A DNA stretch of 64,000 nt from positions 352,001 through 416,000 of the forward strand of contig CAVRJM010000001.1 of the NCBI GenBank assembly GCA_963722075.1, given 5' to 3'. Under the pieces are notes generated by a model. It searched no databases and was not told where the DNA came from. It worked only from the letters and a program-made list of their open reading frames with translations. This document shows, piece by piece, positions 6,468 to 55,341 of this stretch. Each line of letters begins with the position of its first letter. Position 1 is the stretch's first letter. A program made the translations under genes and the position numbers. The stretch is from Candidatus Babeliales bacterium. GTDB lineage: Bacteria; Babelota; Babeliae; Babelales; JANWKD01.

Positions 6468-6508
6468 GTCGTTGCGATCCAGCCTTCGCCCAAGGGGCTT
6501 CGGCGGAC
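6468..6508. repeat. Family A end fragment (GTCGTTGCGA) plus a single family B hairpin
   Basis: TCCAGCCTTCGCCCAAGGGGCTTCGGCGGAC abuts the stop codon of 6508..8016. Confidence 0.75.
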
Positions 6509-12918: not shown

Positions 12919-13065
12919 CTGGATTCTTAGGCTTCGCTCAGAATGACATACGACACGGTCATCCTGAGGAACTTGCGTCCGACTTCGCCATGGCTACGCC
13001 GGATTCCTCAATAGCAAAGTGCGTGTCCGGCGGAGTTTTAACGGAGACGGAACGTGAGGATACAG
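12919..13065. repeat. Composite palindromic repeat: family A (right half then left half) carrying a family B doublet at 12975-13051
   Basis: CTGGATTC..CTCAGAATGAC / GTCATCCTGAG-[GCGTCCGACTTCGCCATGGCTACGCCGGA...TGTCCGGCGGAGTTTTAACGGAGACGGA]-ACGTGAGGATACAG. Confidence 0.85.
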
Positions 13066-18975: not shown

Positions 18976-19050
18976 TGGGGCGTCGCCAAGTGGTAAGGCA
19001 CCAGGTTTTGGTCCTGGCATTCGGAGGTTCGAATCCTTCCGCCCCAGCCA
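18976..19050 (+). tRNA. tRNA-Gln (TTG)
   Basis: TGGGGCG/CGCCCCA acceptor stem, anticodon arm CCAGG-TTTTGGT-CCTGG, GGTTCGAATCC T arm, encoded CCA. Confidence 0.97.
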
Positions 19051-19188
19051 TCCTTCGCTCTTACAGAGCTACGGCTGGGCAAGCCAGTTGTTTAAATGAA
19101 ATATACATAATAGAAAAGTGAAGAGCGAAGGCTGTCACGCCCTAGCTTATGCTTCAAAGTTATACCCGAGAAAAAAGCGACGGCGGAC
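19051..19188. repeat. Inverted doublet of family B hairpins between tRNA-Gln and the GIY-YIG gene
   Basis: TCCTTCGCTCTTACAGAGCTACGGCTGGGCAAGCC (+) and TGTCACGCCCTAGCTT...AAGCGACGGCGGAC (-). Confidence 0.75.
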
Positions 19189-19243: not shown

Positions 19244-19483
19244 ATGTATTATGTCTATATATTAAATTCAGTTATTGATAAAAATCGTATGTATGTCGGT
19301 TGTACAATTGATCTAGAAAATAGACTAAACGAACACAATGCTGGTGAATGTATACATACGAACAAGTACAAGCCATGGAAATTGTGGACTTACATATATT
19401 TTGAGAATAAAGAAAAGGCAATCGCTTTTGAACGTTACTTAAAATCTGGTTCTGGTAGATCTTTTTCAAAAAGGCATTTTTAA
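19244..19483 (+). CDS. Stand-alone GIY-YIG nuclease
   Basis: YYVYIL...MYVGCT.DLENRL.EHN.G...T.KY.PW...A..FE.YLKSGSGR; catalytic Tyr, Arg and Glu positions present. Confidence 0.92.
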   Translation: MYYVYILNSVIDKNRMYVGCTIDLENRLNEHNAGECIHTNKYKPWKLWTYIYFENKEKAIAFERYLKSGSGRSFSKRHF

Positions 19484-23915: not shown

Positions 23916-24842
23916 TTATAATTCTAATGCCATCTTGATAATGGCATGATCAGAAAAATGCTTAATATGTTTAATATCCTGATTAACATGTCTGAGTAAA
24001 TTATTGGGATTTTCAGGGGAATAAATCAGATTTTTTACCGTGAACTGCTTACTATAAAAAATAAAATCATTAAGATTAAATCCTTGTTGCGCGCCGGTTG
24101 AGGTTGGTACTAATGGAAGCATATCAGCATTGCTTTTCATTTCATGCACATAGTGCTGTAACTTATTATATTTTTTTTTATTTAACTTATCAGTGCCTTG
24201 CAATACGGAGTAATTAAAATCTCCGCATATAATCCATGGTAGATTTTTTGGCGCGCGATCAATTGTATCTTTAATAATAGAAAAATGATCTGCATGATCC
24301 TCATTGAGCATAAAAGGTATATGCGTATTGATAATGCCTATTGCTTTCTTTTTTTTAGTTTGCAAATGCGCAACCATCATTTTTTTATTAGGAGTAAACA
24401 CCATAAATTCGTAGGAAAGAATAGTAAATTTATGCTTATTAATGAGTGTGAGTACGCCGTCTTTTTGTGCAATGCTATCAATAATATAATAATAATCATT
24501 GGGTGAATATGCATCTAATAAGGTGTTATTAAACCTCTTATATTGTACTTCTCTATTATTATTAAAATAATCGTATTTAGTTTCCTTATGGCCATTTACC
24601 ATAACAACTTCTTGTTCAAATTGTTTACGTAATTCCCCTGGGTTATAGGGCCATTCTTGAAAACAAAGGATATCACACCCATTAAGGATATGGCCCGGTC
24701 GTAATGCTTGTTTAAAAAGAGAACATCTTTTTTTAATAGCAATGGGATACTGATCTACATATTGAATGTAATAAGGCTCATAAAGCACATTACAAGTGGC
24801 AGCGGTTATGGTTGAGGCTGATGATCGTTTCATATGGATCAT
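23916..24842 (-). CDS. Endonuclease/exonuclease/phosphatase (EEP) family protein, paralog 1
   Basis: TCNVL, DILCFQE, INTH, ICGDFN, DFIFY, FSDH. Confidence 0.9.
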   Translation of the reverse strand: MIHMKRSSASTITAATCNVLYEPYYIQYVDQYPIAIKKRCSLFKQALRPGHILNGCDILCFQEWPYNPGELRKQFEQEVVMVNGHKETKYDYFNNNREVQYKRFNNTLLDAYSPNDYYYIIDSIAQKDGVLTLINKHKFTILSYEFMVFTPNKKMMVAHLQTKKKKAIGIINTHIPFMLNEDHADHFSIIKDTIDRAPKNLPWIICGDFNYSVLQGTDKLNKKKYNKLQHYVHEMKSNADMLPLVPTSTGAQQGFNLNDFIFYSKQFTVKNLIYSPENPNNLLRHVNQDIKHIKHFSDHAIIKMALEL

Positions 24843-24906
24843 TTCTTAAATAATTGTTATTATTATATCATATAAAGATTTATAAAACTTTTTCTATATT
24901 TTTATT

Positions 24907-25524
24907 ATGAATAATATTCTTTTATTGGCATCTCAATCATATTCGCGTCGTCAATTACTCAGTCAAGCAGCTATCCCTTTTGTATTGTTAGAACAATCAG
25001 CTGATGAAAATGCCTGCGATTGGAATATGCCACTTACTCAGTTAGTTACTTCAATCGCTAAGCATAAAATGGAACAGGTTATTTTACCGCGTCACACAGA
25101 TAGTAAACCGATTTTTGTGTTGACGGCTGATACCTTAACGCAAGATCTATCAGGAACGATTTTGGGTAAACCAACATCGCGATCCCATGCACTTGAAATG
25201 CTACGCGCAGTGCGCGCAGGGGCTCGTATTGCTACGGCATTTTGCTTAGATAAAAAAATTTATCGCTTTGATACCTGGCAGACCCAAGAACGAATTATAA
25301 TGGTAGTAGAATCGAGTTGTATATTTAATGTGCCTGAGCAATGGCTTGAACAATATCTTTATCATGTACCCGCATTAAGTTGTTCTGCAGCCATGTATAT
25401 TGAAGGGTATGGGGCGCAATTTTTAAAATCCGTAACGGGTTCTTATAGTACCATTATTGGTTTACCTATATGTGAGGTGCGGCAAGCCTTAGAAAAAATG
25501 GGATTTTTTAGCGAGAGTATTTAA
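24907..25524 (+). CDS. maf: Maf family nucleotide pyrophosphatase, paralog 2
   Basis: LLASQSYSRR, TADT, LGKP, GSYSTIIGLP. Confidence 0.85.
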   Translation: MNNILLLASQSYSRRQLLSQAAIPFVLLEQSADENACDWNMPLTQLVTSIAKHKMEQVILPRHTDSKPIFVLTADTLTQDLSGTILGKPTSRSHALEMLRAVRAGARIATAFCLDKKIYRFDTWQTQERIIMVVESSCIFNVPEQWLEQYLYHVPALSCSAAMYIEGYGAQFLKSVTGSYSTIIGLPICEVRQALEKMGFFSESI

Positions 25525-25932
25525 TAGACTGCTTATGGATTGAGAGTTATAGCAAATTAATGTACAGCAAAATCCCAACGTTAAAAAAGCGCTATTATTA
25601 AATAAATGTTTTTTGGCTTGCAAAAATGGTTTAATTTTTGCTGCTTCATGTTGCTGCCTAAGTGATTCATTACCTTCTTCTATTAATTTATTTTCTTCTT
25701 TTATATCTGCTTGTTGTTGTTTACTTCCTTGTAATGGTTTTAAGCTTGAAAGTATGAGTGGCTTATTTTTATCAGCAGCCTCTTTATAAATTGTATACGA
25801 TATAATAGTTCTATAAAGTTGAATAGCCGTTAAGCCAGCGCACAACGTGGTGCCTATGGTAGAAAACGTCAACGGCACTTCAGAATACATGGTATTGTAA
25901 AATATGAACAGTATAATTAAGCACTTTTTCAT
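25489..25932 (-). CDS. Hypothetical membrane protein
   Basis: Signal peptide plus two hydrophobic segments; start overlaps the upstream EEP stop. Confidence 0.65.
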   Translation of the reverse strand: MKKCLIILFIFYNTMYSEVPLTFSTIGTTLCAGLTAIQLYRTIISYTIYKEAADKNKPLILSSLKPLQGSKQQQADIKEENKLIEEGNESLRQQHEAAKIKPFLQAKKHLFNNSAFLTLGFCCTLICYNSQSISSLLNTLAKKSHFF

Positions 25933-27002
25933 AGCTGAAATTCTATTCGTATCACTGCATGATCCGAAAAATAATCATTTTCATTAGGATCTTGATTTTC
26001 ATGATGAATTAATTGACCAGCAGTTGGAAATAATGACGCATTAAGCACTTTCATCGTGTTGCTAAAAAATACATAATCGTCATGCTCTGGATAATTATGA
26101 GCGCCCCATGCCGTTGCAGGGAGATAATATCCGCTTTTTTCCTGTTGTCCCAGTAATAAAACCACATTGTTAAAATGAGGAAAGCGGTTTGCTAACTGGT
26201 TAAAAAGTGTTTGATCTAAATAATAATGATATTGAAGATCTAAAATATCATAATTAAAATCTCCACAGACAATCCAATAAGTAACGCTACTATTATCAGC
26301 GATTATCTTCTTAATAGTATTTAAGCCATGTAAATTTGCTTGTGCATTATACGGTAGATGTGCATTTATAACTCCCATAGTATGCGGATGATTTTTTGGT
26401 TGTATAATAGTAACCAAGATTCTTTTTGATATATCAAGCGTAATGGTTTGTGATGATAATAATTGAAATTTATTTTTATTTATTACGGTAAGTACCGTGT
26501 CATACGGGGCTAAGTTATCATAAATATATTCGTATGCCTGAGTAGGATATGCATCAGCAAGATCTTCAATAAATTTTAAATAAGAGGCATTGATAGAATT
26601 AAAATAATTATTCTTAGTTATAGCTTGCTTATTAATATAAATAACATCATTCTTATTTTGGCGTAATTCACCTACACCGTATGGCCATTCTTGAAAACAA
26701 AGAATATCAACGTTTTGCAAAGCATGATTATTTTGTAAACTTTTTCTAAAGGCGGCACGGCGATTTTGTATATCTATTAATACATTATTTTTTTTTAGAT
26801 ATTGAACGTAAAATGGTTCGTACAACATGTTGCAGGTAGTGAGCGTAAACTTAAATGGGATTGTTGCGAGCGTGGTAAGGGGCGTGCTGAGAGCGGTGTG
26901 TAATTGTTGTAATGAAGTTCGTAAGTGATTTAATTCAGTTTCTAAGGCCCCCAGATAATTGAATAGAAATAAGTGGACGAGCAGTAAAAAGTTTTTATTC
27001 AT
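25929..27002 (-). CDS. Secreted EEP family protein, paralog 2
   Basis: Signal peptide; TCNML, DILCFQEWPY, VCGDFN, DYVFF, FSDH. Confidence 0.9.
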   Translation of the reverse strand: MNKNFLLLVHLFLFNYLGALETELNHLRTSLQQLHTALSTPLTTLATIPFKFTLTTCNMLYEPFYVQYLKKNNVLIDIQNRRAAFRKSLQNNHALQNVDILCFQEWPYGVGELRQNKNDVIYINKQAITKNNYFNSINASYLKFIEDLADAYPTQAYEYIYDNLAPYDTVLTVINKNKFQLLSSQTITLDISKRILVTIIQPKNHPHTMGVINAHLPYNAQANLHGLNTIKKIIADNSSVTYWIVCGDFNYDILDLQYHYYLDQTLFNQLANRFPHFNNVVLLLGQQEKSGYYLPATAWGAHNYPEHDDYVFFSNTMKVLNASLFPTAGQLIHHENQDPNENDYFSDHAVIRIEFQL

Positions 27003-27065
27003 TATTTTTTCCTTTTTTTACTTAAAATACCGAAGTATAACCTTGAAAGCAATATTTCTGCACTT

Positions 27066-27256
27066 GTCATTCCGAGCGCGTCCGACCTCGCCACGGGGCT
27101 CCGCCGGATTCCGTCAATGATAGTGTGCCTGTCCGGCGAAGTTGTTTACACCGCCATAGCTTTTAGCGACGGCCGGATTAACGTAGATGGATGGGAATCC
27201 ATTAATAAGATTTTTCATTTATAAATGGATCACCACGGCTAACGCCTCGTGATGAC
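27066..27256. repeat. Triple-nested palindromic repeat (family A > family B doublet > extra family B hairpin)
   Basis: GTCATTCCGAG...CTCGTGATGAC outer inverted ends; B doublet 27078-27191; 34 bp insert 27144-27177. Confidence 0.85.
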
Positions 27257-27350
27257 GTTTTGTGGTTTTTATTGATTTTATAAGCCTTTTTTTGTTATTT
27301 TAATATAGTAGTATAAAAGTAGCCTTACGTTAAAAATAGGAGGTAATATC

Positions 27351-39049: not shown

Positions 39050-39137
39050 TAGTAGTAAAAATTGTTGCAAATAAAAAATATTTTATGGCATGCTATCATT
39101 GTTGTAGTATTACGGATTAAATAAAGGAGTTTCGTAT

Positions 39138-39377
39138 ATGATGAATTGTTCTCCAGCAATGAAAATTGTTGCAAAGATTTCAATGTTAATTTGTTCATTA
39201 GCTGCAATTCACATGGGTCTTATGGAAATGGGATATAATCTTATTGATACCATGAAATTAGCTGAATATGCACGTCCACTTGGTTATATTGTCGGTATAG
39301 CTGGTGTGATCAGCTTAGTGATGCTTATTTTGTGGTGTACGAAGTCTCATTGTGACACCACCGGATCATGTCGATAA
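39138..39377 (+). CDS. Small two-TM protein (DUF378-like), copy 1
   Basis: KISMLICSLAAIHMGL...YIVGIAG; AAGGAG RBS. Confidence 0.75.
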   Translation: MMNCSPAMKIVAKISMLICSLAAIHMGLMEMGYNLIDTMKLAEYARPLGYIVGIAGVISLVMLILWCTKSHCDTTGSCR

Positions 39378-39388
39378 AGGAGTTTACG

Positions 39389-39652
39389 ATGCATTGTTCT
39401 CCCGTTATGAAGATCGTTGCAAAGATTTCAATGTTAATTTGTTCATTAGCTGCAATTCACATAGGTTTGATGGAAATGGGATATAATCTCATTGATCCCA
39501 TGAAGCTTGCTGAATATGCACGTCCGCTTGGCTATATTGTTGGTATAGCTGGATTAATCAGCTTAGTGATGCTAGTGATGTGGTGCATGAAATCTCATTG
39601 TGGCTGCGGACCAGGATGTTCTGGATCATGCAGTTCCGGTTCTTGCCGATAA
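39389..39652 (+). CDS. Small two-TM protein (DUF378-like), copy 2 with Cys-rich tail
   Basis: Near-identical to copy 1; ATG 39389 follows AAGGAG; tail HCGCGPGCSGSCSSGSCR. Confidence 0.75.
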   Translation: MHCSPVMKIVAKISMLICSLAAIHIGLMEMGYNLIDPMKLAEYARPLGYIVGIAGLISLVMLVMWCMKSHCGCGPGCSGSCSSGSCR

Positions 39653-42993: not shown

Positions 42994-44304
42994 TTAATGA
43001 GTTTGTTTTTTATAGTTTTCCTGTAGCAGAGAGGTAATTTCAACATTAGAATGGTTAATGGTTAAATCATTCAGAGTAATAGTAGCACCTTTACGCAGTA
43101 ATAATTTAATTATTTTTACGTAATTATTATACTGATAATGATCGTGTGTAGGTATGTTTTCCAGCGCAAATGTTAAAGCGGAGTAATTAAGATTTTCTTT
43201 ATAGTTAATATCGGCTTCGCATTTAATTAATTTTTTTACTGCTTCTCTTTGACCGTGAATGCATGCAAATTGTAATGCTGATAGCCCGTTTTCAGCAGTT
43301 GTGCAATTTACATCGGCGCTTCCTTGATGAACAATATGATGTATATTTTTGGGGTTATATAGAATTGCTACAAATAAAATATTAAAAGGATCTTCTGAAA
43401 AAGCCTCGGGTACTTCGGACTCATTATTGTTTCCTTCCAAATCATTTGGGTGAAAGTTTTGATTAAAATCGAAGCCCGCTTCATACATTCGTTTAAAATT
43501 ATGTGGTTTTTTAAAATCAACAATTATTAATAAATCTTCAAACCATAACGTTGCGCCTTTTTGTATAAGCGAGACACCTAATTCAGGGAATTTTTTAAGC
43601 GATATGCCTAAAGCGTTTTCACCGATTTCATTATCTTCAAGTTGTAATTGAATATCATCGCCAAGAATAGCAATTATCTTTCTAGCCACCATTTCATAAT
43701 TATGTTGTAATGCAGTTAGTAAAGGGGATTTATTAAATTTATCATAATTGCTTAGTAATGGTATTGGACTTGCGTTATTTGATAATGTTTCCATTACCTC
43801 TAAAAAGGCAATAGCACGCTTTTGTTTACCATGTGCGATACAATGATGAAAGGCATTCTGTCCGTCATTATTTACGGCGGTTATATTATCCATAGTATTA
43901 TTATAAATATTTGACAAAATGAATGCTTGTAAATCTGATGTGGTTGATAAATAATGTAAAACGGTATTGTTAAAACGAGAGCGATAATTATTAAATTCAT
44001 CTTGTAATTCAATAGGAAGTTTAGCATATGCTTCTGCCAATGGAACAAGTTTTTTTGGATATAATTTAAATACTATTGAGGGTTTTTGCTTAAAATATTT
44101 TATTAATTGGGTAAAAACTAATTCTTTTAAACTTTTGACTCTATTTGACTTTTTATATTCAGTTTCTTTAATTTTTTTTATAATTTTTGTTGTAATACTT
44201 TTTTCTTCTTTAGTTTCTTCTCGTGATCTTTTCATTGCCCATGCAGGGTAAATTACAAAAGATATTAATAATGAAAATAGACCGAATTTAATTTTATGAG
44301 TCAT
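42994..44304 (-). CDS. Secreted ankyrin-repeat protein with BC/SOCS-box-like motif
   Basis: AWA|MKRSR; SLKELVFTQL...KLPIEL; GQNAFHHC, KSPLLTAL, GLSALQFAC. Confidence 0.85.
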   Translation of the reverse strand: MTHKIKFGLFSLLISFVIYPAWAMKRSREETKEEKSITTKIIKKIKETEYKKSNRVKSLKELVFTQLIKYFKQKPSIVFKLYPKKLVPLAEAYAKLPIELQDEFNNYRSRFNNTVLHYLSTTSDLQAFILSNIYNNTMDNITAVNNDGQNAFHHCIAHGKQKRAIAFLEVMETLSNNASPIPLLSNYDKFNKSPLLTALQHNYEMVARKIIAILGDDIQLQLEDNEIGENALGISLKKFPELGVSLIQKGATLWFEDLLIIVDFKKPHNFKRMYEAGFDFNQNFHPNDLEGNNNESEVPEAFSEDPFNILFVAILYNPKNIHHIVHQGSADVNCTTAENGLSALQFACIHGQREAVKKLIKCEADINYKENLNYSALTFALENIPTHDHYQYNNYVKIIKLLLRKGATITLNDLTINHSNVEITSLLQENYKKQTH

Positions 44305-44334
44305 GATTTTATTTTCTCCATTTAAGCGATTGTA

Positions 44335-45135
44335 TTATTTTTTTTCTAATAGGGCGGAAATTTTTTTGCCTACTTTCATTCGTACTGAATATTTGGGATA
44401 GGTAATTATGTAAGGATCGCCAAATTTGTCTATTTGTTGTTGCATAAAATAAGCATTTCCCTCTGTATATTCTTTACCCTTCATGCAGCTCAAAATATCT
44501 GCCCGTAATTCTTGAAACTGAATTAATTTATTAAGTGGGTTATTTTTCTGATCAGTAATTGGTTTATAAGGAGTTGAGTTGCGTATAAAATAACGCGTAG
44601 AATGATCATGATGAATCAAATGAATAAGTTCATGTCCTATAATAAACTGTTGTCCTTCTGGCGATAACTTTTTGAACATACTTTCGTTTACAAAAATAAT
44701 GCTATCAGTAGAAGAAGCAGGTATTTCAATATTCCATGGTATCATTTCAACCTGAGTGCTATCAACGTTAAATTCAGCCATAATATCCTTAATCAATTGG
44801 ACGGTATCTGCCGAAATGAGTTGATTAGAATTATAATGTTTTTTCATATCTTGAATACTTGCCCAATAATCAGAATGAGGATCATTGCGTAATTGTTGGC
44901 ATTGATTAGCAGTCATTGGATATACAGCGCTAATTTCTTGCCATAATGCTGTTTGGGTGGTATCAAGCCATTCGAGTAGTTGATTGTCAGTAGTAACGTG
45001 ATCAAAGTTGACGGCATTAATGTTGAAATGTTTGGCTATTGAAGGTTCTATTTTTGTATTTTGTACATGCTTGGATGCATATATAACAATAATTCCTATC
45101 AAAATTGTGGGATAAAGTATGTATTTGAATTGCAT
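44335..45135 (-). CDS. HEXXH metallopeptidase (M48-like), paralog 2
   Basis: FIIGHELIH, QELRAD, TYPKYSVR. Confidence 0.75.
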   Translation of the reverse strand: MQFKYILYPTILIGIIVIYASKHVQNTKIEPSIAKHFNINAVNFDHVTTDNQLLEWLDTTQTALWQEISAVYPMTANQCQQLRNDPHSDYWASIQDMKKHYNSNQLISADTVQLIKDIMAEFNVDSTQVEMIPWNIEIPASSTDSIIFVNESMFKKLSPEGQQFIIGHELIHLIHHDHSTRYFIRNSTPYKPITDQKNNPLNKLIQFQELRADILSCMKGKEYTEGNAYFMQQQIDKFGDPYIITYPKYSVRMKVGKKISALLEKK

Positions 45136-45168
45136 GATTTTATTTTCTCCATTTAATTAATAATTTTA

Positions 45169-46560
45169 TTATTGATTCTTTTCTAATCGTTCAAGCTCTT
45201 GTTTTTGATAATACTCTTGTAGAAGATCAGATAATTTTTGATCTGCTTGTACAACTTCCTTATCATATGCTGAGATAGTAATGCCTTTGCGTAGTAACAA
45301 CTTAATTATTTTCAAAAGAGTTTCTGAGTCAGCAGATGTATCTTCGATATATTGTTCAAGAATGAAACTCAAAACGGTACCGCCAGTAGATTGTTCTTCA
45401 TTAAGATTTGCGCCTTCTTTAATGAGTTTTTTTATGGCAGAAATGTTATAGGTTTTAGCTGCAAATGATAAAGGGGATTCGCTATCAGCGCAGGCGTTAA
45501 CGTCGGCTTTGCCCTCACGTACAAGGCGAGTAATATTTTTGGGTTTATGCATAACTGCTAACATTAAGCAAGTAAACTCGCTATTACAGGGCTCATCTAT
45601 TTCATTAATATCGGGAATATAAAGGGCGCTTTGATCGAAATCAAAGTTAGCTTGATGGAGTTGCTTAAATAGAAGAGGGTCATCTGTTTGAGCTATAGCT
45701 TTTAAGTGGTTAAAATCTACTTCTGCCCCGTTTTTAATAAGTAATGGTACTAATCTTGGGACATTAACGATTGCTGCAATGAGAGGGTTTTGCCCACTTT
45801 TATTAGGTTTATTAAGATAATTGCTCAATTGATCAGGGTTATTGCCAACAATAGTAATAATTTTTTCAGCAATTTTTTTATAACCGTTTAATAACGCCAA
45901 TAATAAGGGATGATTGTTGTTGGGGTTAAGGACGTTGTCAATTAAACAGGCAGCATTGAATTTTACCATACCCTCTTCTTCTTCTTGGGCTAATTGTTCT
46001 TTCTCTATTTGTTGGGCGACATCTAATAAGGTATCTGCAATAGCTGGTTGTCTTTGTATAAGGCGAGAATATAATGCTGTATGCCAGTTGGGTACTATAC
46101 TATATTCTGTTGCGCTATTTTCATCATTGTTATTATTGTTTTCATTGTTATGAGTTTTGGTAGTAGGAATTTGATTAGATTCAATGGCTAATTTGATAAA
46201 TGCCTTTATATCTTGTGGATCAAATAATTTATGTAAAAGACTGGAATCTTTCTTATGAGAATGTTGATTGCATTCTATCCGTAATTCCACTGGTAAGCGA
46301 GGGTATGCTGCTGCTAATGTGCCCGGTATTCTTTTAAAATATTTTACCAATGCTTTTTTTGCCAATTTTTTTAAGGTTTTTATTTGTATTGGTTCACTGA
46401 GTTCTTCACTAAGGCATTTGGCTTCTTTCGCGCTTGAGCTTGCTCTATTGGTACCTCGTTCTAATTCATGTCTGGGTCTCTTCATTGCCCATGCAGAATG
46501 AGTTGCACAAGAAAGAAAGGCAAACGCTATTACTATATTAAGTTTAGTTTTAAAAATCAT
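45169..46560 (-). CDS. Secreted ankyrin-repeat protein with BC/SOCS-box-like motif
   Basis: AWA|MKRPR; TLKKLAKKAL...RLPVEL; HPLLLAL, GQNPLIAA, ESPLSFAA; paralog of 42994..44304. Confidence 0.85.
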   Translation of the reverse strand: MIFKTKLNIVIAFAFLSCATHSAWAMKRPRHELERGTNRASSSAKEAKCLSEELSEPIQIKTLKKLAKKALVKYFKRIPGTLAAAYPRLPVELRIECNQHSHKKDSSLLHKLFDPQDIKAFIKLAIESNQIPTTKTHNNENNNNNDENSATEYSIVPNWHTALYSRLIQRQPAIADTLLDVAQQIEKEQLAQEEEEGMVKFNAACLIDNVLNPNNNHPLLLALLNGYKKIAEKIITIVGNNPDQLSNYLNKPNKSGQNPLIAAIVNVPRLVPLLIKNGAEVDFNHLKAIAQTDDPLLFKQLHQANFDFDQSALYIPDINEIDEPCNSEFTCLMLAVMHKPKNITRLVREGKADVNACADSESPLSFAAKTYNISAIKKLIKEGANLNEEQSTGGTVLSFILEQYIEDTSADSETLLKIIKLLLRKGITISAYDKEVVQADQKLSDLLQEYYQKQELERLEKNQ

Positions 46561-48133: not shown

Positions 48134-48290
48134 GTCGTCACGAGGAGCGGCGTCCGACTTCGCCAAGGCTACGACGGATTCCGTCAAAGCAAGCGCGCCT
48201 GTCCGTCGAAGTTTTAACGTAGACGGAACGTGGTGATCCAGGCTGAAATTTTCAAGGAACCCTGGATTGCTTCGACGAGCTCGCAACGAC
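48134..48290. repeat. Complete family A palindrome carrying a family B doublet at 48150-48227
   Basis: GTCGTCACGAG...CTCGCAACGAC ends; inner GATCCAGG/CCTGGATT stem; GCGTCCGACTTCGCCAAGGCTACGACGGA...TGTCCGTCGAAGTTTTAACGTAGACGGA. Confidence 0.88.
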
Positions 48291-51489: not shown

Positions 51490-53391
51490 ATGAAATTTTG
51501 TAAAATCTTATTACTGTCTATAGGTTTGTTGGGACTTTTATGTCCTCAATTTATGGAAAGCATGGACCTAAAGTCATATGCTATTAAGCATTCATCAGCC
51601 CTTGTATCACATATACTGAACCATAAATACACTTACTTAGGAATAGGCGCATTAGCGTGCCTTGGAGGTATATATGGTGGTTATAGCTTATACCGTAAGG
51701 CTTACCAGCAACCTCAGTCTCAGCCTCAAATAAAAAAGGAGCTTCGTAGCTTATTATTGGGGCGTCCTTTGATCGTTGATAAAAATGACTTGTTGTCTAA
51801 ACGAGAAGAACGTAATAAACGGTTGTTGTTGAATGAAATGAGCGGGATAATTAATGAATATAAAAATTTAAAAAAATTTATTCTTCCTACTAATGAATAT
51901 CCAGCATATAAAATAAATAAAATGGTGCCATCTACCACGCCACTTGCCTATGAAACGCTTGATAAATTGGTTGATCTCTTTTTTTGCATGATGCAAAGAA
52001 GTGTTTTTAATAAACAAGATTATTGGATAAACCATACCAATCCGCAACAGTTTCTTAATCATCTTAGTAACAATGAAGAAGAACCTCAATTTAATCCGTT
52101 TATGCAAAAAATAGTAGTAAACCCAGGATCCCAAATAGCTTTTCAGGGTGATTTGCATGGTGATGTGCATTCGTTACTAGCAAGTTTGGATGCGTTAAAA
52201 GAAAAAGGATATTTAGATGAAAATTATAAAATAATAAAAGATAATTTTTATTTGGCTTTTTTAGGTGACTATGTTGATAAAGGCATATACGGCTTAGAAG
52301 TTATTTCGGTAATTATGTACCTAAAATGTCTTAACTTTAATAAGGTTCTTTTAGTGCGTGGGAATCATGAAGATTGGTATATATCGGGGACTGACATGTT
52401 TGACGCTGAAATATGCCGCAAGTTCCAGCTTGATGAAGATAATGATATTGGCAATAAGTACGCCAATATTACCAAAAAAATAAAAAAGATGTATGAATGC
52501 TTGCCAGTGGCTATATTTTATGGAGTGCGTGATACCACCAATACAACCAATTATCTTTTGTTATGCCATGGAGCAGTTGAATGGGGTGTAAATACTCATA
52601 ATCTTCTGAGTCATAATAATAGCGTTGCATTTGAGCAAATAAAATCGCTCAACCGCAAAACAGAGTTAAATAATTTAATGCACAATGATGAAATTTTTAA
52701 AAAGTTAGATGATTTTGTGCATCTCGATGAGCGAAATAATACGGCATTCAACTTACATAGTCCCGATTATGAAGTAAGCAGTATTGCAGGAGGTATTGAT
52801 GATGGTAAGGCTATCTCTTTTGTATGGGGTGATTATATTGTAAAATCTGATGCCGAGCGCAAATCTGCTACCAGTAATTTTAAATTTATTTTGCCTGGCA
52901 GGTTATTTCAGATTGGGGAATATTTCAATTGGATGGTATTAAAAGGATATAGCACTCCTCATCATAAAGTTCGTGGAGTATTTCGCGGGCATCAGCATGC
53001 TGCTGAGATTGAAAATCCAATGATGCAAAGTATTTTCAAAAGAATCTCTTTTGATTCAAAAACATCGGGGTCAGAGATTGATGAATATTCGCATGATTAC
53101 AAAGAAAATGCAGGAGTGAGTAAGCTATGGCTTTCAAGCGCGCCGCCAAATACGTATGCATTATGGGATAATATTGTCTGCACCTTTAATGTAAGCCCAT
53201 GTACTACTTGCCAACAGGCGGGGATTATCAAAAAAAATGATAAAACTAAACACAAGTTTAATTTTACAACACTTGGGATGCTTACCACTGCATCAGCATT
53301 TGAAGATTGGAAATTAGACGTAAGTCGCATAAAAATATTTAATAAAAATGTTTTTCAAGAATTGCAGGCCCAAAACAATAAGCAACAATAG
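51490..53391 (+). CDS. Secreted PPP/calcineurin-like metallophosphoesterase, paralog 1
   Basis: GDLHGD, GDYVDKG, RGNHE, LCHG, RGHQH; signal peptide plus one TM. Confidence 0.9.
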   Translation: MKFCKILLLSIGLLGLLCPQFMESMDLKSYAIKHSSALVSHILNHKYTYLGIGALACLGGIYGGYSLYRKAYQQPQSQPQIKKELRSLLLGRPLIVDKNDLLSKREERNKRLLLNEMSGIINEYKNLKKFILPTNEYPAYKINKMVPSTTPLAYETLDKLVDLFFCMMQRSVFNKQDYWINHTNPQQFLNHLSNNEEEPQFNPFMQKIVVNPGSQIAFQGDLHGDVHSLLASLDALKEKGYLDENYKIIKDNFYLAFLGDYVDKGIYGLEVISVIMYLKCLNFNKVLLVRGNHEDWYISGTDMFDAEICRKFQLDEDNDIGNKYANITKKIKKMYECLPVAIFYGVRDTTNTTNYLLLCHGAVEWGVNTHNLLSHNNSVAFEQIKSLNRKTELNNLMHNDEIFKKLDDFVHLDERNNTAFNLHSPDYEVSSIAGGIDDGKAISFVWGDYIVKSDAERKSATSNFKFILPGRLFQIGEYFNWMVLKGYSTPHHKVRGVFRGHQHAAEIENPMMQSIFKRISFDSKTSGSEIDEYSHDYKENAGVSKLWLSSAPPNTYALWDNIVCTFNVSPCTTCQQAGIIKKNDKTKHKFNFTTLGMLTTASAFEDWKLDVSRIKIFNKNVFQELQAQNNKQQ

Positions 53392-53703
53392 AAATTCATT
53401 CATATGGCGAATTTTATACGCGTAATGATTTTAAGTTTTTAAATTCGATAAACACATCTATTTGAAAATTTATAATTAGTATTATGGTAATTTGCTAATC
53501 AGATTTTGTTGTTTAGAATTAACTGATTAATAATATTGCGTATCAAAATTATGTTTTTCATTCAAATTTAATCATATTTTATATTTGTTTTTCATTTTAG
53601 CGATCCAGTGCCGCAAACAGAAGATGTTTGACGGCTTGTTGCTTTTGGCGTATCGTTAATTGCCAATAATCGTCAATTACTGTATCAAAGAAAGGATTTT
53701 GCT

Positions 53704-55341
53704 ATGCAATTATATGGAATATGCTTACTAAGTTTATTGCTGTCATCATTATTAACATCATATGGTATGGAGGCTGATACAACGCCAATTGATATGGCTG
53801 ATATAATAGATGAGATGAAAGCAGTTATTCCTCAATATGCTAAGCTGGATAAGTTCATGATGGATGGCAATTATTTTCGCGCCTCTGCTTTTAAAAGTTA
53901 TATCCCAAAAAAAACGCCACTATCGTACGACCTTTTAGATAAACTATTTACTTGTTTTTTTTATAGGATGCAAAATAATCCTGTTAGCCAGCAAACAAAT
54001 TGGAGCGATAATACTAATCCTCAAGAATTTTTTCATTCAATTCTTTCTGCTAAAAAAGAAGAAGAAGTGCCCTTTAGGCCTTATATGCAAAAAATGGTAG
54101 TTGCGCCGGGGTCAGAAAAAAATTTTCAAGGTGATTTGCACGGCGATGTTCATTCATTATTGGAAACCCTCCAAGGATTGCAAGAAAAAGGATATTTAGA
54201 TGATAATTACAAAATAATAAAAGATAATTTTTATCTTGCTTTTTTAGGGGATTATGTAGATAAGGGTATCTATGGCATAGAGGTTATTTCATTAATTTTA
54301 TATTTAAAATGTCTCAACTTTGATAATGTATTGCTGGTACGTGGTAATCATGAAGATTGGACCATTTGCGGTAATGAAGCATTTGGAAGTGGGGAGCTTC
54401 CTTTAAAATTCCCTAAAGAAAATGATGAACTGCGTAATAAAATTCAAAAAATGTATGAATGCTTACCGGTTGCTATATTTTATGGGGTCCCAGATGCCAA
54501 CAATATAACTAATTATGCTTTATTGTGCCATGGCGGGGTAGAGATGGGAGTTGATACCCATAATCTTCTTCCTCATCCCAAAGCTATTACATTTGAACAA
54601 ATAAAAACTATTGATCGCGTTACTCAAGCAAATAAATTAAAGGCGCTAGAGCGTTATAAGCAATTAATTGCATTAAATGCTTGTGCAGTAGAGGCTTTAG
54701 AAAGAGAAATTTTTAGAGTTAATAGTTTTGTTCCTGAAATATTACCAGACGTTGGATTTGCATGGAATGATTATTATGTTAAGCCCGATGACAAACGGAA
54801 TAATGAGGATGGCTTTAAGTGGGCAAAAATTTATCCTGGCAGAGGTATAATAATAGGAGAACTTTTTAATCAATTGGTTTTAGAAGCATATAGTACAGAG
54901 CATCACAAAGTGCGCGTCGTAATACGCGGTCATCAACATAATAATGCGCATATGGATGAAATGATGCAAAGTGTTTTCAAGAAAAAATCATTTGGTCAAA
55001 AACAGACCAAAGAATCAGCGATTGATCTTGCATCGAACGATTATTATGAAAATAAAGGGGTGAGCAAATTGTGGCTTTCTCAATCGCCTCCTCATGCGCA
55101 CTCAGTATGGCCTAATTTGGTATGCACAATCAATGTTAGTCCCTGCACTTTTTACCAAAATGTGGGCATTGTAAATAAAGGTGTTCTCTCTAAAATTAAA
55201 CATAAATTTAATTTTGCTACGGTAGGAATTTTAAAAACTGCAGCATCATTTGAAGATTGGAAGTTAACAGTAGTCCGCAAAGAGATATTTGGCAAAGATG
55301 AATTCCAATTATTACAAAATAAAAAAAATAGTAAAAATTAA
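53704..55341 (+). CDS. Secreted PPP/calcineurin-like metallophosphoesterase, paralog 2
   Basis: GDLHGD, GDYVDKG, RGNHE, LCHGG, RGHQH; signal peptide. Confidence 0.9.
   Translation: MQLYGICLLSLLLSSLLTSYGMEADTTPIDMADIIDEMKAVIPQYAKLDKFMMDGNYFRASAFKSYIPKKTPLSYDLLDKLFTCFFYRMQNNPVSQQTNWSDNTNPQEFFHSILSAKKEEEVPFRPYMQKMVVAPGSEKNFQGDLHGDVHSLLETLQGLQEKGYLDDNYKIIKDNFYLAFLGDYVDKGIYGIEVISLILYLKCLNFDNVLLVRGNHEDWTICGNEAFGSGELPLKFPKENDELRNKIQKMYECLPVAIFYGVPDANNITNYALLCHGGVEMGVDTHNLLPHPKAITFEQIKTIDRVTQANKLKALERYKQLIALNACAVEALEREIFRVNSFVPEILPDVGFAWNDYYVKPDDKRNNEDGFKWAKIYPGRGIIIGELFNQLVLEAYSTEHHKVRVVIRGHQHNNAHMDEMMQSVFKKKSFGQKQTKESAIDLASNDYYENKGVSKLWLSQSPPHAHSVWPNLVCTINVSPCTFYQNVGIVNKGVLSKIKHKFNFATVGILKTAASFEDWKLTVVRKEIFGKDEFQLLQNKKNSKN

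Follow-up and report, generated by a model that had tools for sequence, protein, structure and literature searches.

Hairpin repeats of a family here termed B occupy base-exact sites in this genome, namely within hairpins of a second repeat family (A), within loops of B itself and at the 3′-ends of tRNA genes, and we lean towards the view that they were pasted there after a nick by a small Slx1-like nuclease that travels with B. A role of this nuclease in B insertion appears likely from its linkage to B, its predicted fold and the analogy with the enzyme SsnA.

Organization and integrity of the nested locus

The window, that is, the whole 64,000-nt stretch analyzed, corresponds to positions 352001-416000 of contig C1 in a 1.47-Mb genome with 35% GC. 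The nested locus within it is flanked by an exo/endo/phosphatase gene and a DUF6496 gene in divergent orientation, and is composed of the following elements, listed together with comparable copies elsewhere in the window:

27066-27201, plus strand: A unit 1, a REP of the CGTC type (left arm 27066-27077, right arm 27192-27201)
27226-27256, minus strand: A unit 2, empty and inverted relative to unit 1 (A-A pair with tails inward)
27078-27191, no strand: B doublet D, a composite with 20 copies in A hosts genome-wide
27081-27107, minus strand: B unit 1 of doublet D
27133-27191, plus strand: B unit 2 of doublet D, which carries insert C (joint between 27143 and 27178)
27144-27177, plus strand: insert C, a 7-nt leader (27144-27150) followed by one B hairpin (27151-27177)
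48153-48227, no strand: empty D doublet inside an A unit, same site, without the insert
12978-13051, no strand: empty D doublet inside an A unit, same site, without the insert
6478-6506, minus strand: lone B unit in a decayed A unit (left internal-loop edge)

A unit 1 carries a GTC tag and a CCA tail, its 5-bp stem is separated from an inner stem by a purine-rich internal loop, and the B doublet stands in place of its loop region. An earlier note on this DNA had placed the doublet at 27078-27191 within A and a 34-bp insert at 27144-27177, with the joint contiguous in empty copies at 48208 and 13032, and every one of these positions is exact. The nesting that it described as three levels, with a palindrome outermost, is also real and exact, but the palindrome is in fact two inverted A units, and the locus therefore has four levels, an A-A pair, an A unit, a B doublet and the insert; nor is it a one-off, as 19 copies of the insert are found.

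That the locus is an assembly chimera of collapsed repeats, the caveat raised in the earlier note, is extremely improbable: the genome is apparently a metagenome assembly, the matching runs are soil and peat metagenomes and, among the matches listed, no piece crosses the whole locus (27086-27117 is bridged by no identical record), but contigs from two other runs match letter for letter, one being identical to 27118-27268 and thus covering the whole insert and unique flank, the other being identical over 26926-27085 and covering the left joint, and the 19 insert copies have distinct flanks and private substitutions. No RNA runs were among the matching runs listed.

The window also contains tandem paralogues (23916-27002, 42994-46560 and 51490-55341 together), comprising two metallophosphoesterases, two exo/endo/phosphatase genes and ORFs with similar start regions. 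A 221-nt direct repeat is present twice at 39134-39602, with 248 nt between its copies (87% identical), downstream of a 965-aa ORF without a Pfam match.

Abundance and structure of families A and B

A structural scan yielded 190 A candidates compared with 2 in shuffled sequence, each with an internal loop between a 5-bp outer and a 2-4-bp inner stem; 187 of them end in CCA, in a search for which a GTC start and two tail C residues were themselves required. For B, a weight-matrix scan made 178 calls genome-wide, whereas each locally shuffled version of C1 gave 0-2; once opposite-strand duplicates were removed, 149 distinct 3′-ends were left. Lone B units fold poorly, the energy of a single unit not being significant (−4.2 kcal/mol for the insert, z −1.1), and the assignment of B as a hairpin rests on compensatory changes across copies. 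Two pairs of the inner stem switch jointly between T-A and C-G and are paired in 69 and 68 of 72 distinct short-loop units, a level of covariation reached in 0 of 1000 shuffles, which is not a probability because the B copies are related. The edges of the 3 × 3 purine-rich internal loop of B are almost never Watson-Crick pairs. Searching the window against Rfam at gathering score matched the tRNA and nothing else.

Several further arrangements of B were observed. At C1 209816, 270333 and 1365561, a conserved stretch of at least 70 nt, common to the three loci, comes after a B unit; it may be a further repeat or else a short gene start that is repeated. Extra 23-nt hairpins resembling the inner part of A are present in B loops at C1 200111, 259173, 587161, 1113152 and others, and AT-rich palindromic expansions of 28-37 nt in those at C1 210251 and 1349398. 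B units are nested multiply in another genome, G154 (L180 and L188, near 1500).

Insert C occupies a single joint and was probably gained or copied repeatedly

Pooled scans identified 19 copies of insert C genome-wide, of which 17 have a clear host and 2 a decayed one. All 19 share one joint, at the 5′ edge of the B terminal loop, and removal of the insert restores the empty sequence in every case, with neither duplication nor loss, which bears out the earlier impression that target-site duplications were lacking; no duplication was found either at stem-foot A hosts whose upstream bases are unlike the insert end. The host bases at −4, −3, −1 and +1 are invariant, while those at −5 and farther out, or at +2 and beyond, differ according to the host. 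Hosts having T on both sides of the joint were filled in 16 of 65 cases and all others in 0 of 87 (Fisher p 4e-7, an overstatement because the hosts are related); these figures cover 16 inserts on scored hosts, three further hosts having been left out as too decayed or too long-looped.

To follow the history of the insert, a host tree was built from 25 alignable hosts (10 filled and 15 empty) with the insert removed (93 columns; 12 of 22 inner branches open). Nine gains or losses are needed on this tree, three of them forced by strong branches, and the filled label is no more clustered than in shuffles (445 of 500 as low). Single-base variants of the insert are shared across strong branches, C1 711344 with 840811 and 379144 with 704128. 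Of 16 filled hosts, 13 have an empty one as their nearest neighbor where approximately 12 are expected (49 empty versus 15 other filled hosts), a count therefore read only as an absence of clustering. As filled and empty hosts are mixed on the tree, these data favor repeated gain or copying of insert C over a single gain inherited with the host; repeated precise loss would be a less probable account of the mixture.

B inserted in B at the same joint was also found in two other genomes of the phylum (L179 and L182) with different leaders, and in the genome studied here the leader is class-specific, each site class having its own. A strict left-left-right-right nesting scan of 153 foreign loci detected 2, both away from the standard joint, and a 70-bp query had partial matches in 6 of 260 other genomes (at most three candidates scored per genome). 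In one collapsed copy, at C1 749894, the left arm of the host is joined to the right arm of the insert. Contigs of three runs showed no indel or joint at the sites, at low cover, and no orthologous empty site was found in the same-genus and same-family genomes, which differ upstream of the DUF6496 gene.

Most B ends lie at fixed positions in a few hairpin families and at tRNA ends

The 149 B ends were assigned to site classes that are partly hand-curated, so the counts are approximate; three rows of the table of ends pair an inner left arm with an outer right end. One hundred ends lie in A at five fixed sites, the left internal-loop edge (23), the right internal loop (21), the stem foot (20) and the terminal loop (16, plus 20 left units of doublet D). 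Sixteen lie in B loops, and 23 are linked to tRNAs, 9 at tRNA or tmRNA 3′-ends and 14 as second units of tRNA cassettes. Free-standing B, the predominance of which the earlier note had considered, is rare, amounting to 3 cassette-type ends without a tRNA and 7 ends outside the classes, one of them probably a false call. The 116 nested ends are divided among terminal loops (52), internal-loop edges (44) and the A stem foot (20). Most joints fall at, or within one base of, a boundary between helix and unpaired bases on the insert-carrying strand, but they are not uniform: approximately 5 nt are lost in one A class, and polarity is reversed at the tRNA joint.

The earlier note had read the locus as insertion into hairpin loops, those of B included, guided by structure rather than by sequence. 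B does enter hairpins and its own loop, the local sequence of the joints differs among A, B and tRNA hosts, most joints lie at helix boundaries, and the predicted fold of the candidate nuclease is like that of the structure-selective Slx1, all of which is in keeping with such a reading. However, in the genome-wide catalogue of B junctions, 0 of 149 ends rejoin in the loop of an unrelated perfect stem of at least 7 bp, although C1 holds 230 other strong, unrelated hairpins, 64 of the 116 nested ends lie away from terminal loops, and, as described above, none of the 87 B loops that do not have T on both sides of the joint is filled. Insertion into any hairpin loop on structure alone is thus contradicted in this genome and has very little chance of being the general rule. 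Since no B end is found in unrelated hairpin loops, targeting needs both sequence and structure: the B site is set by the family sequence together with the hairpin shape, and the target is a few related hairpin families at fixed bases and not loops as such.

B cassettes at the 3′-ends of tRNA genes

The tRNA-linked B ends are represented in the window by one tRNA gene and its cassette:

18976-19050, plus strand: tRNA-Gln, the CCA end of which is the start of a B hairpin
19047-19187: tRNA-linked B cassette, with units on the minus (19047-19077) and plus (19137-19187) strands

By manual reading, 27 of the 36 tRNA genes and the tmRNA gene carry a B-related trailer starting at CCA, which is of the B type in 11 tRNA genes and the tmRNA and of a shortened B-related type in 16; the automatic score recognized full B units at 8 of 36 tRNA genes. 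Of 37 folds predicted, 20 have the CCA paired, an unrelated tRNA-Ile among them. The 16 shortened trailers are near-identical (e.g., C1 236217, 283795, 328280 and 868261), and their 3′ arm can pair with their own CCA end. Genes without any such trailer are the three for tRNA-Met, those for Cys, Pro and Trp, and one each for Val, Ala and Ile. Cassettes of the tRNA type are also present at C1 199304, 871827 and 881720 with no tRNA upstream, one of them behind the stop codon of what we take, from its translation, to be a ribosomal protein gene.

A distinct clade of small GIY-YIG nucleases accompanies B

Downstream of the tRNA-Gln cassette lies the gene of the candidate nuclease:

19244-19483, plus strand: 79-aa single-domain GIY-YIG gene, predicted Slx1-like fold, candidate B nuclease

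The genome has eight GIY-YIG matches, seven of them small. Three small genes, of a 96-aa type, stand between inverted A units, and four are of the shorter B-clade type, two of these being broken. Three of the four B-clade genes follow a tRNA, two with full B cassettes (one in the window) and one with a shortened B-related trailer, and the closest relative of the 79-aa nuclease, on a contig titled Candidatus Dependentiae, likewise stands behind a tRNA-Gln. At B-clade loci of the phylum (the 28 of 29 with enough flank), B was found upstream in 21, A in 1 and a tRNA upstream in 18, and the corresponding numbers for metagenomes (59 of 80 loci used) were 46, 2 and 32, giving B upstream at 67 of 87 loci and A near 3 of 87. 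Of 28 A-clade loci, two loci of the genome itself left aside, 22 had A within 350 nt, 2 had B upstream and none had an upstream tRNA. Shuffled flanks gave fewer than one locus per group; the loci are best matches and not independent.

The model of the 79-aa protein (pLDDT 95) has HIGLE and Slx1 as its best structural matches. B-clade and A-clade proteins share 33% identity over 55 aa, and the former make up a separate clade on a long branch; the groups in the protein tree were set by the query, and the tree therefore shows two clades, not co-evolution. The B clade extends to 1,160 representatives at E ≤ 1e-10, and 97 of 151 phylum genomes contain matches. NCBIfam gave no match above cut-off for four small nucleases. 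On a Saccharibacteria contig (L017:330-510), a tRNA-Ser 3′-end is duplicated upstream of a B-clade gene.

Y1_Tnp had a single match, an IS200-like 129-aa frame, in the flanks of which no A or B unit was seen; this Y1 transposase gene (C1 156495-156854) has terminal hairpins of its own.

Comparison with known repeat and nuclease systems

The A family with its genes resembles the Ssn/NTS-SRM systems as outlined by Chenal et al. (2025; PMC11893778), in which a small single-domain GIY-YIG gene is tied to a tagged, oriented hairpin. The A-flanked genes of the 96-aa type show the same repeat-gene-repeat layout (3 genes here and 22 of 28 relatives), and in the A-clade protein the Tyr-Tyr-Glu spacing (7, 18, 64) is similar to what this source reports for SsnA (6, 17, 64). 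A with its genes appears to work like an Ssn/SRM system, even though the commonest A type and the type at the locus fail the published degenerate SRM pattern, as read by hand. A further shares with CGTC-tagged REPs, as these are described in the portion of Di Nocera et al. (2013; PMC3733652) available to us, the terminal CGTC/TGTC tag, an unpaired CCA tail, a stem that mostly begins with an A-T pair and the formation of dimers, but by text description its 5-bp stem with an internal loop differs from their 8-9-bp stem and 4-5-nt loop.

B is unlike Ssn/SRM in having a separate, shorter nuclease clade, a tRNA 3′-end upstream of the gene, no CCA tail and a place inside other hairpins. Its genes belong neither to the clade of SsnA/NTS nor with that repeat type, A-type repeats lying near only the 3 of 87 B-clade loci given above. 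SsnA is assigned to CDD cd10448; cd10449 is absent from the main text of the Ssn paper, which describes SsnA as binding its own hairpin only as ssDNA, needing sequence as well as structure, and cutting a few bases upstream (PMC11893778). Nor does B fit the text description of CGTC REPs, for which the available portion of the source reports REPs within other palindromes in three species and no known transposase, with no base-exact multi-level nesting or tRNA link (PMC3733652).

REPINs, moved by RAYT, share the features of non-autonomous hairpin doublets that form clusters through insertion into or next to other elements; by that account they rely on an HUH tyrosine transposase, whereas here single B units seem mobile and the linked gene is of the GIY-YIG type (PMC3116915). 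A RAYT/REPIN system was rejected, with the sole Y1 gene being IS200-like and free of A or B units in its flanks, as was a MITE of DDE insertion sequences, no target-site duplication being present at any of the 19 inserts. In sequence and position, the palindrome reported downstream of tRNAs in M. kandleri differs from B (PMC5217627, as far as that text could be consulted). Bacterial stand-alone relatives of Slx1 are described as minimal single domains, and the accessible text reports no association of them with repeats or tRNA ends (PMC1564403). The 79-aa protein differs from Slx1 and HIGLE themselves in having no RING or partner domain. Small dispersed repeats of cyanobacteria, the subject of work by Elhai and colleagues in 2008, are reportedly 20-30 nt long with fixed insertion sites, also inside other repeats. 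We know of no link of these to GIY-YIG genes, and their likeness to B is one of description only. B, its link to tRNAs and its clade of nucleases are not described in the literature covered; supplements and subscription journals lay outside this coverage, and those of the Ssn and CGTC papers could list B-like repeats. Insertion of repeats into repeats hence has precedents, and what the locus adds is base-precise, repeated self-insertion.

A proposed mechanism and its alternatives

By analogy with SsnA, a B-clade nuclease may bind its hairpin as single-stranded DNA and nick at, or within one base of, the helix/unpaired boundary, a location of joints that suits a Slx1-like fold. Cutting a donor 5-7 nt upstream of its stem would produce the leader, and host repair, or a short template switch on the approximately 4 nt of matching flank, could then copy the unit from a filled into an empty site. 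The pasting step would need host help, because GIY-YIG enzymes, to our knowledge, hydrolyze DNA and are not known to join strands. A and the A composites carrying D would spread separately, via the Ssn-like genes that they flank. We counted in favor of this model the single joint in all 19 inserts, the mixed host tree, the same joint in L179 and L182, the covarying stem, the clade-specific linkage and the predicted fold, and against it the lack of a filled/empty polymorphism among strains, the non-uniform joints, the two broken genes among four of the B clade and the weak host tree.

Enzyme-free copying among repeats is a serious rival, which we regard as possible but well short of probable. 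Here, one rare template switch per site class would have come first, and the spread would then be due to amplified A composites together with ectopic gene conversion among similar repeats, with no dedicated enzyme. Such copying from filled to empty repeats and back also predicts class-specific leaders, several A subtypes contain the D doublet as a recurring block, and the collapsed copy at C1 749894 shows that slippage between arms happens. Yet host markers at two bases' distance from the joint show no co-conversion and the match is far too short for RecA, the same joint recurs in two other genomes with different leaders, and the presence of B beside one nuclease clade in 67 of 87 loci would be left unexplained.

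A less probable alternative, and in our judgment an unlikely one, is that B was moved in trans by the A-flanked Ssn-like nucleases or by the single IS200-like Y1 transposase. The 100 of 149 B ends inside A and the presence of a Y1 gene are compatible with it, and HUH transposases insert ssDNA without duplication. REPINs also insert into or next to REPINs (PMC3116915). Against this, the Y1 gene is single-copy with neither repeat seen in its flanks, B is found upstream of A-clade genes in just 2 of 28 loci, and SsnA is described as cutting outside its hairpin, not inside (PMC11893778).

Implications for the spread of small hairpin repeats

How CGTC-type repeats spread is a question on which Di Nocera et al. 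found no transposase, and for which the Ssn paper, in the part available, proposes but does not demonstrate that the enzyme spreads its repeats (PMC3733652; PMC11893778). The value of the present locus is base-exact, testable evidence of hairpin movement: filled and empty joints mapped at single-base precision provide exact cut-site predictions for a second clade of GIY-YIG nucleases. Tentatively, and with considerably less confidence than in the nick-and-paste account itself, B and its 79-residue Slx1-like nuclease may constitute a minimal transposition system without a DDE, HUH, serine or tyrosine recombinase, in which one GIY-YIG protein would define the ends of a 30-base hairpin and open base-exact targets, tRNA ends and other hairpin repeats, and whose element is present in 27 of 36 tRNA genes. 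If the nuclease cuts as predicted, it would represent a new class of specificity among ssDNA nucleases and offer a candidate for how very small mobile DNA moves, and it would also explain the hairpins able to pair with the CCA of most tRNA precursors in this organism.
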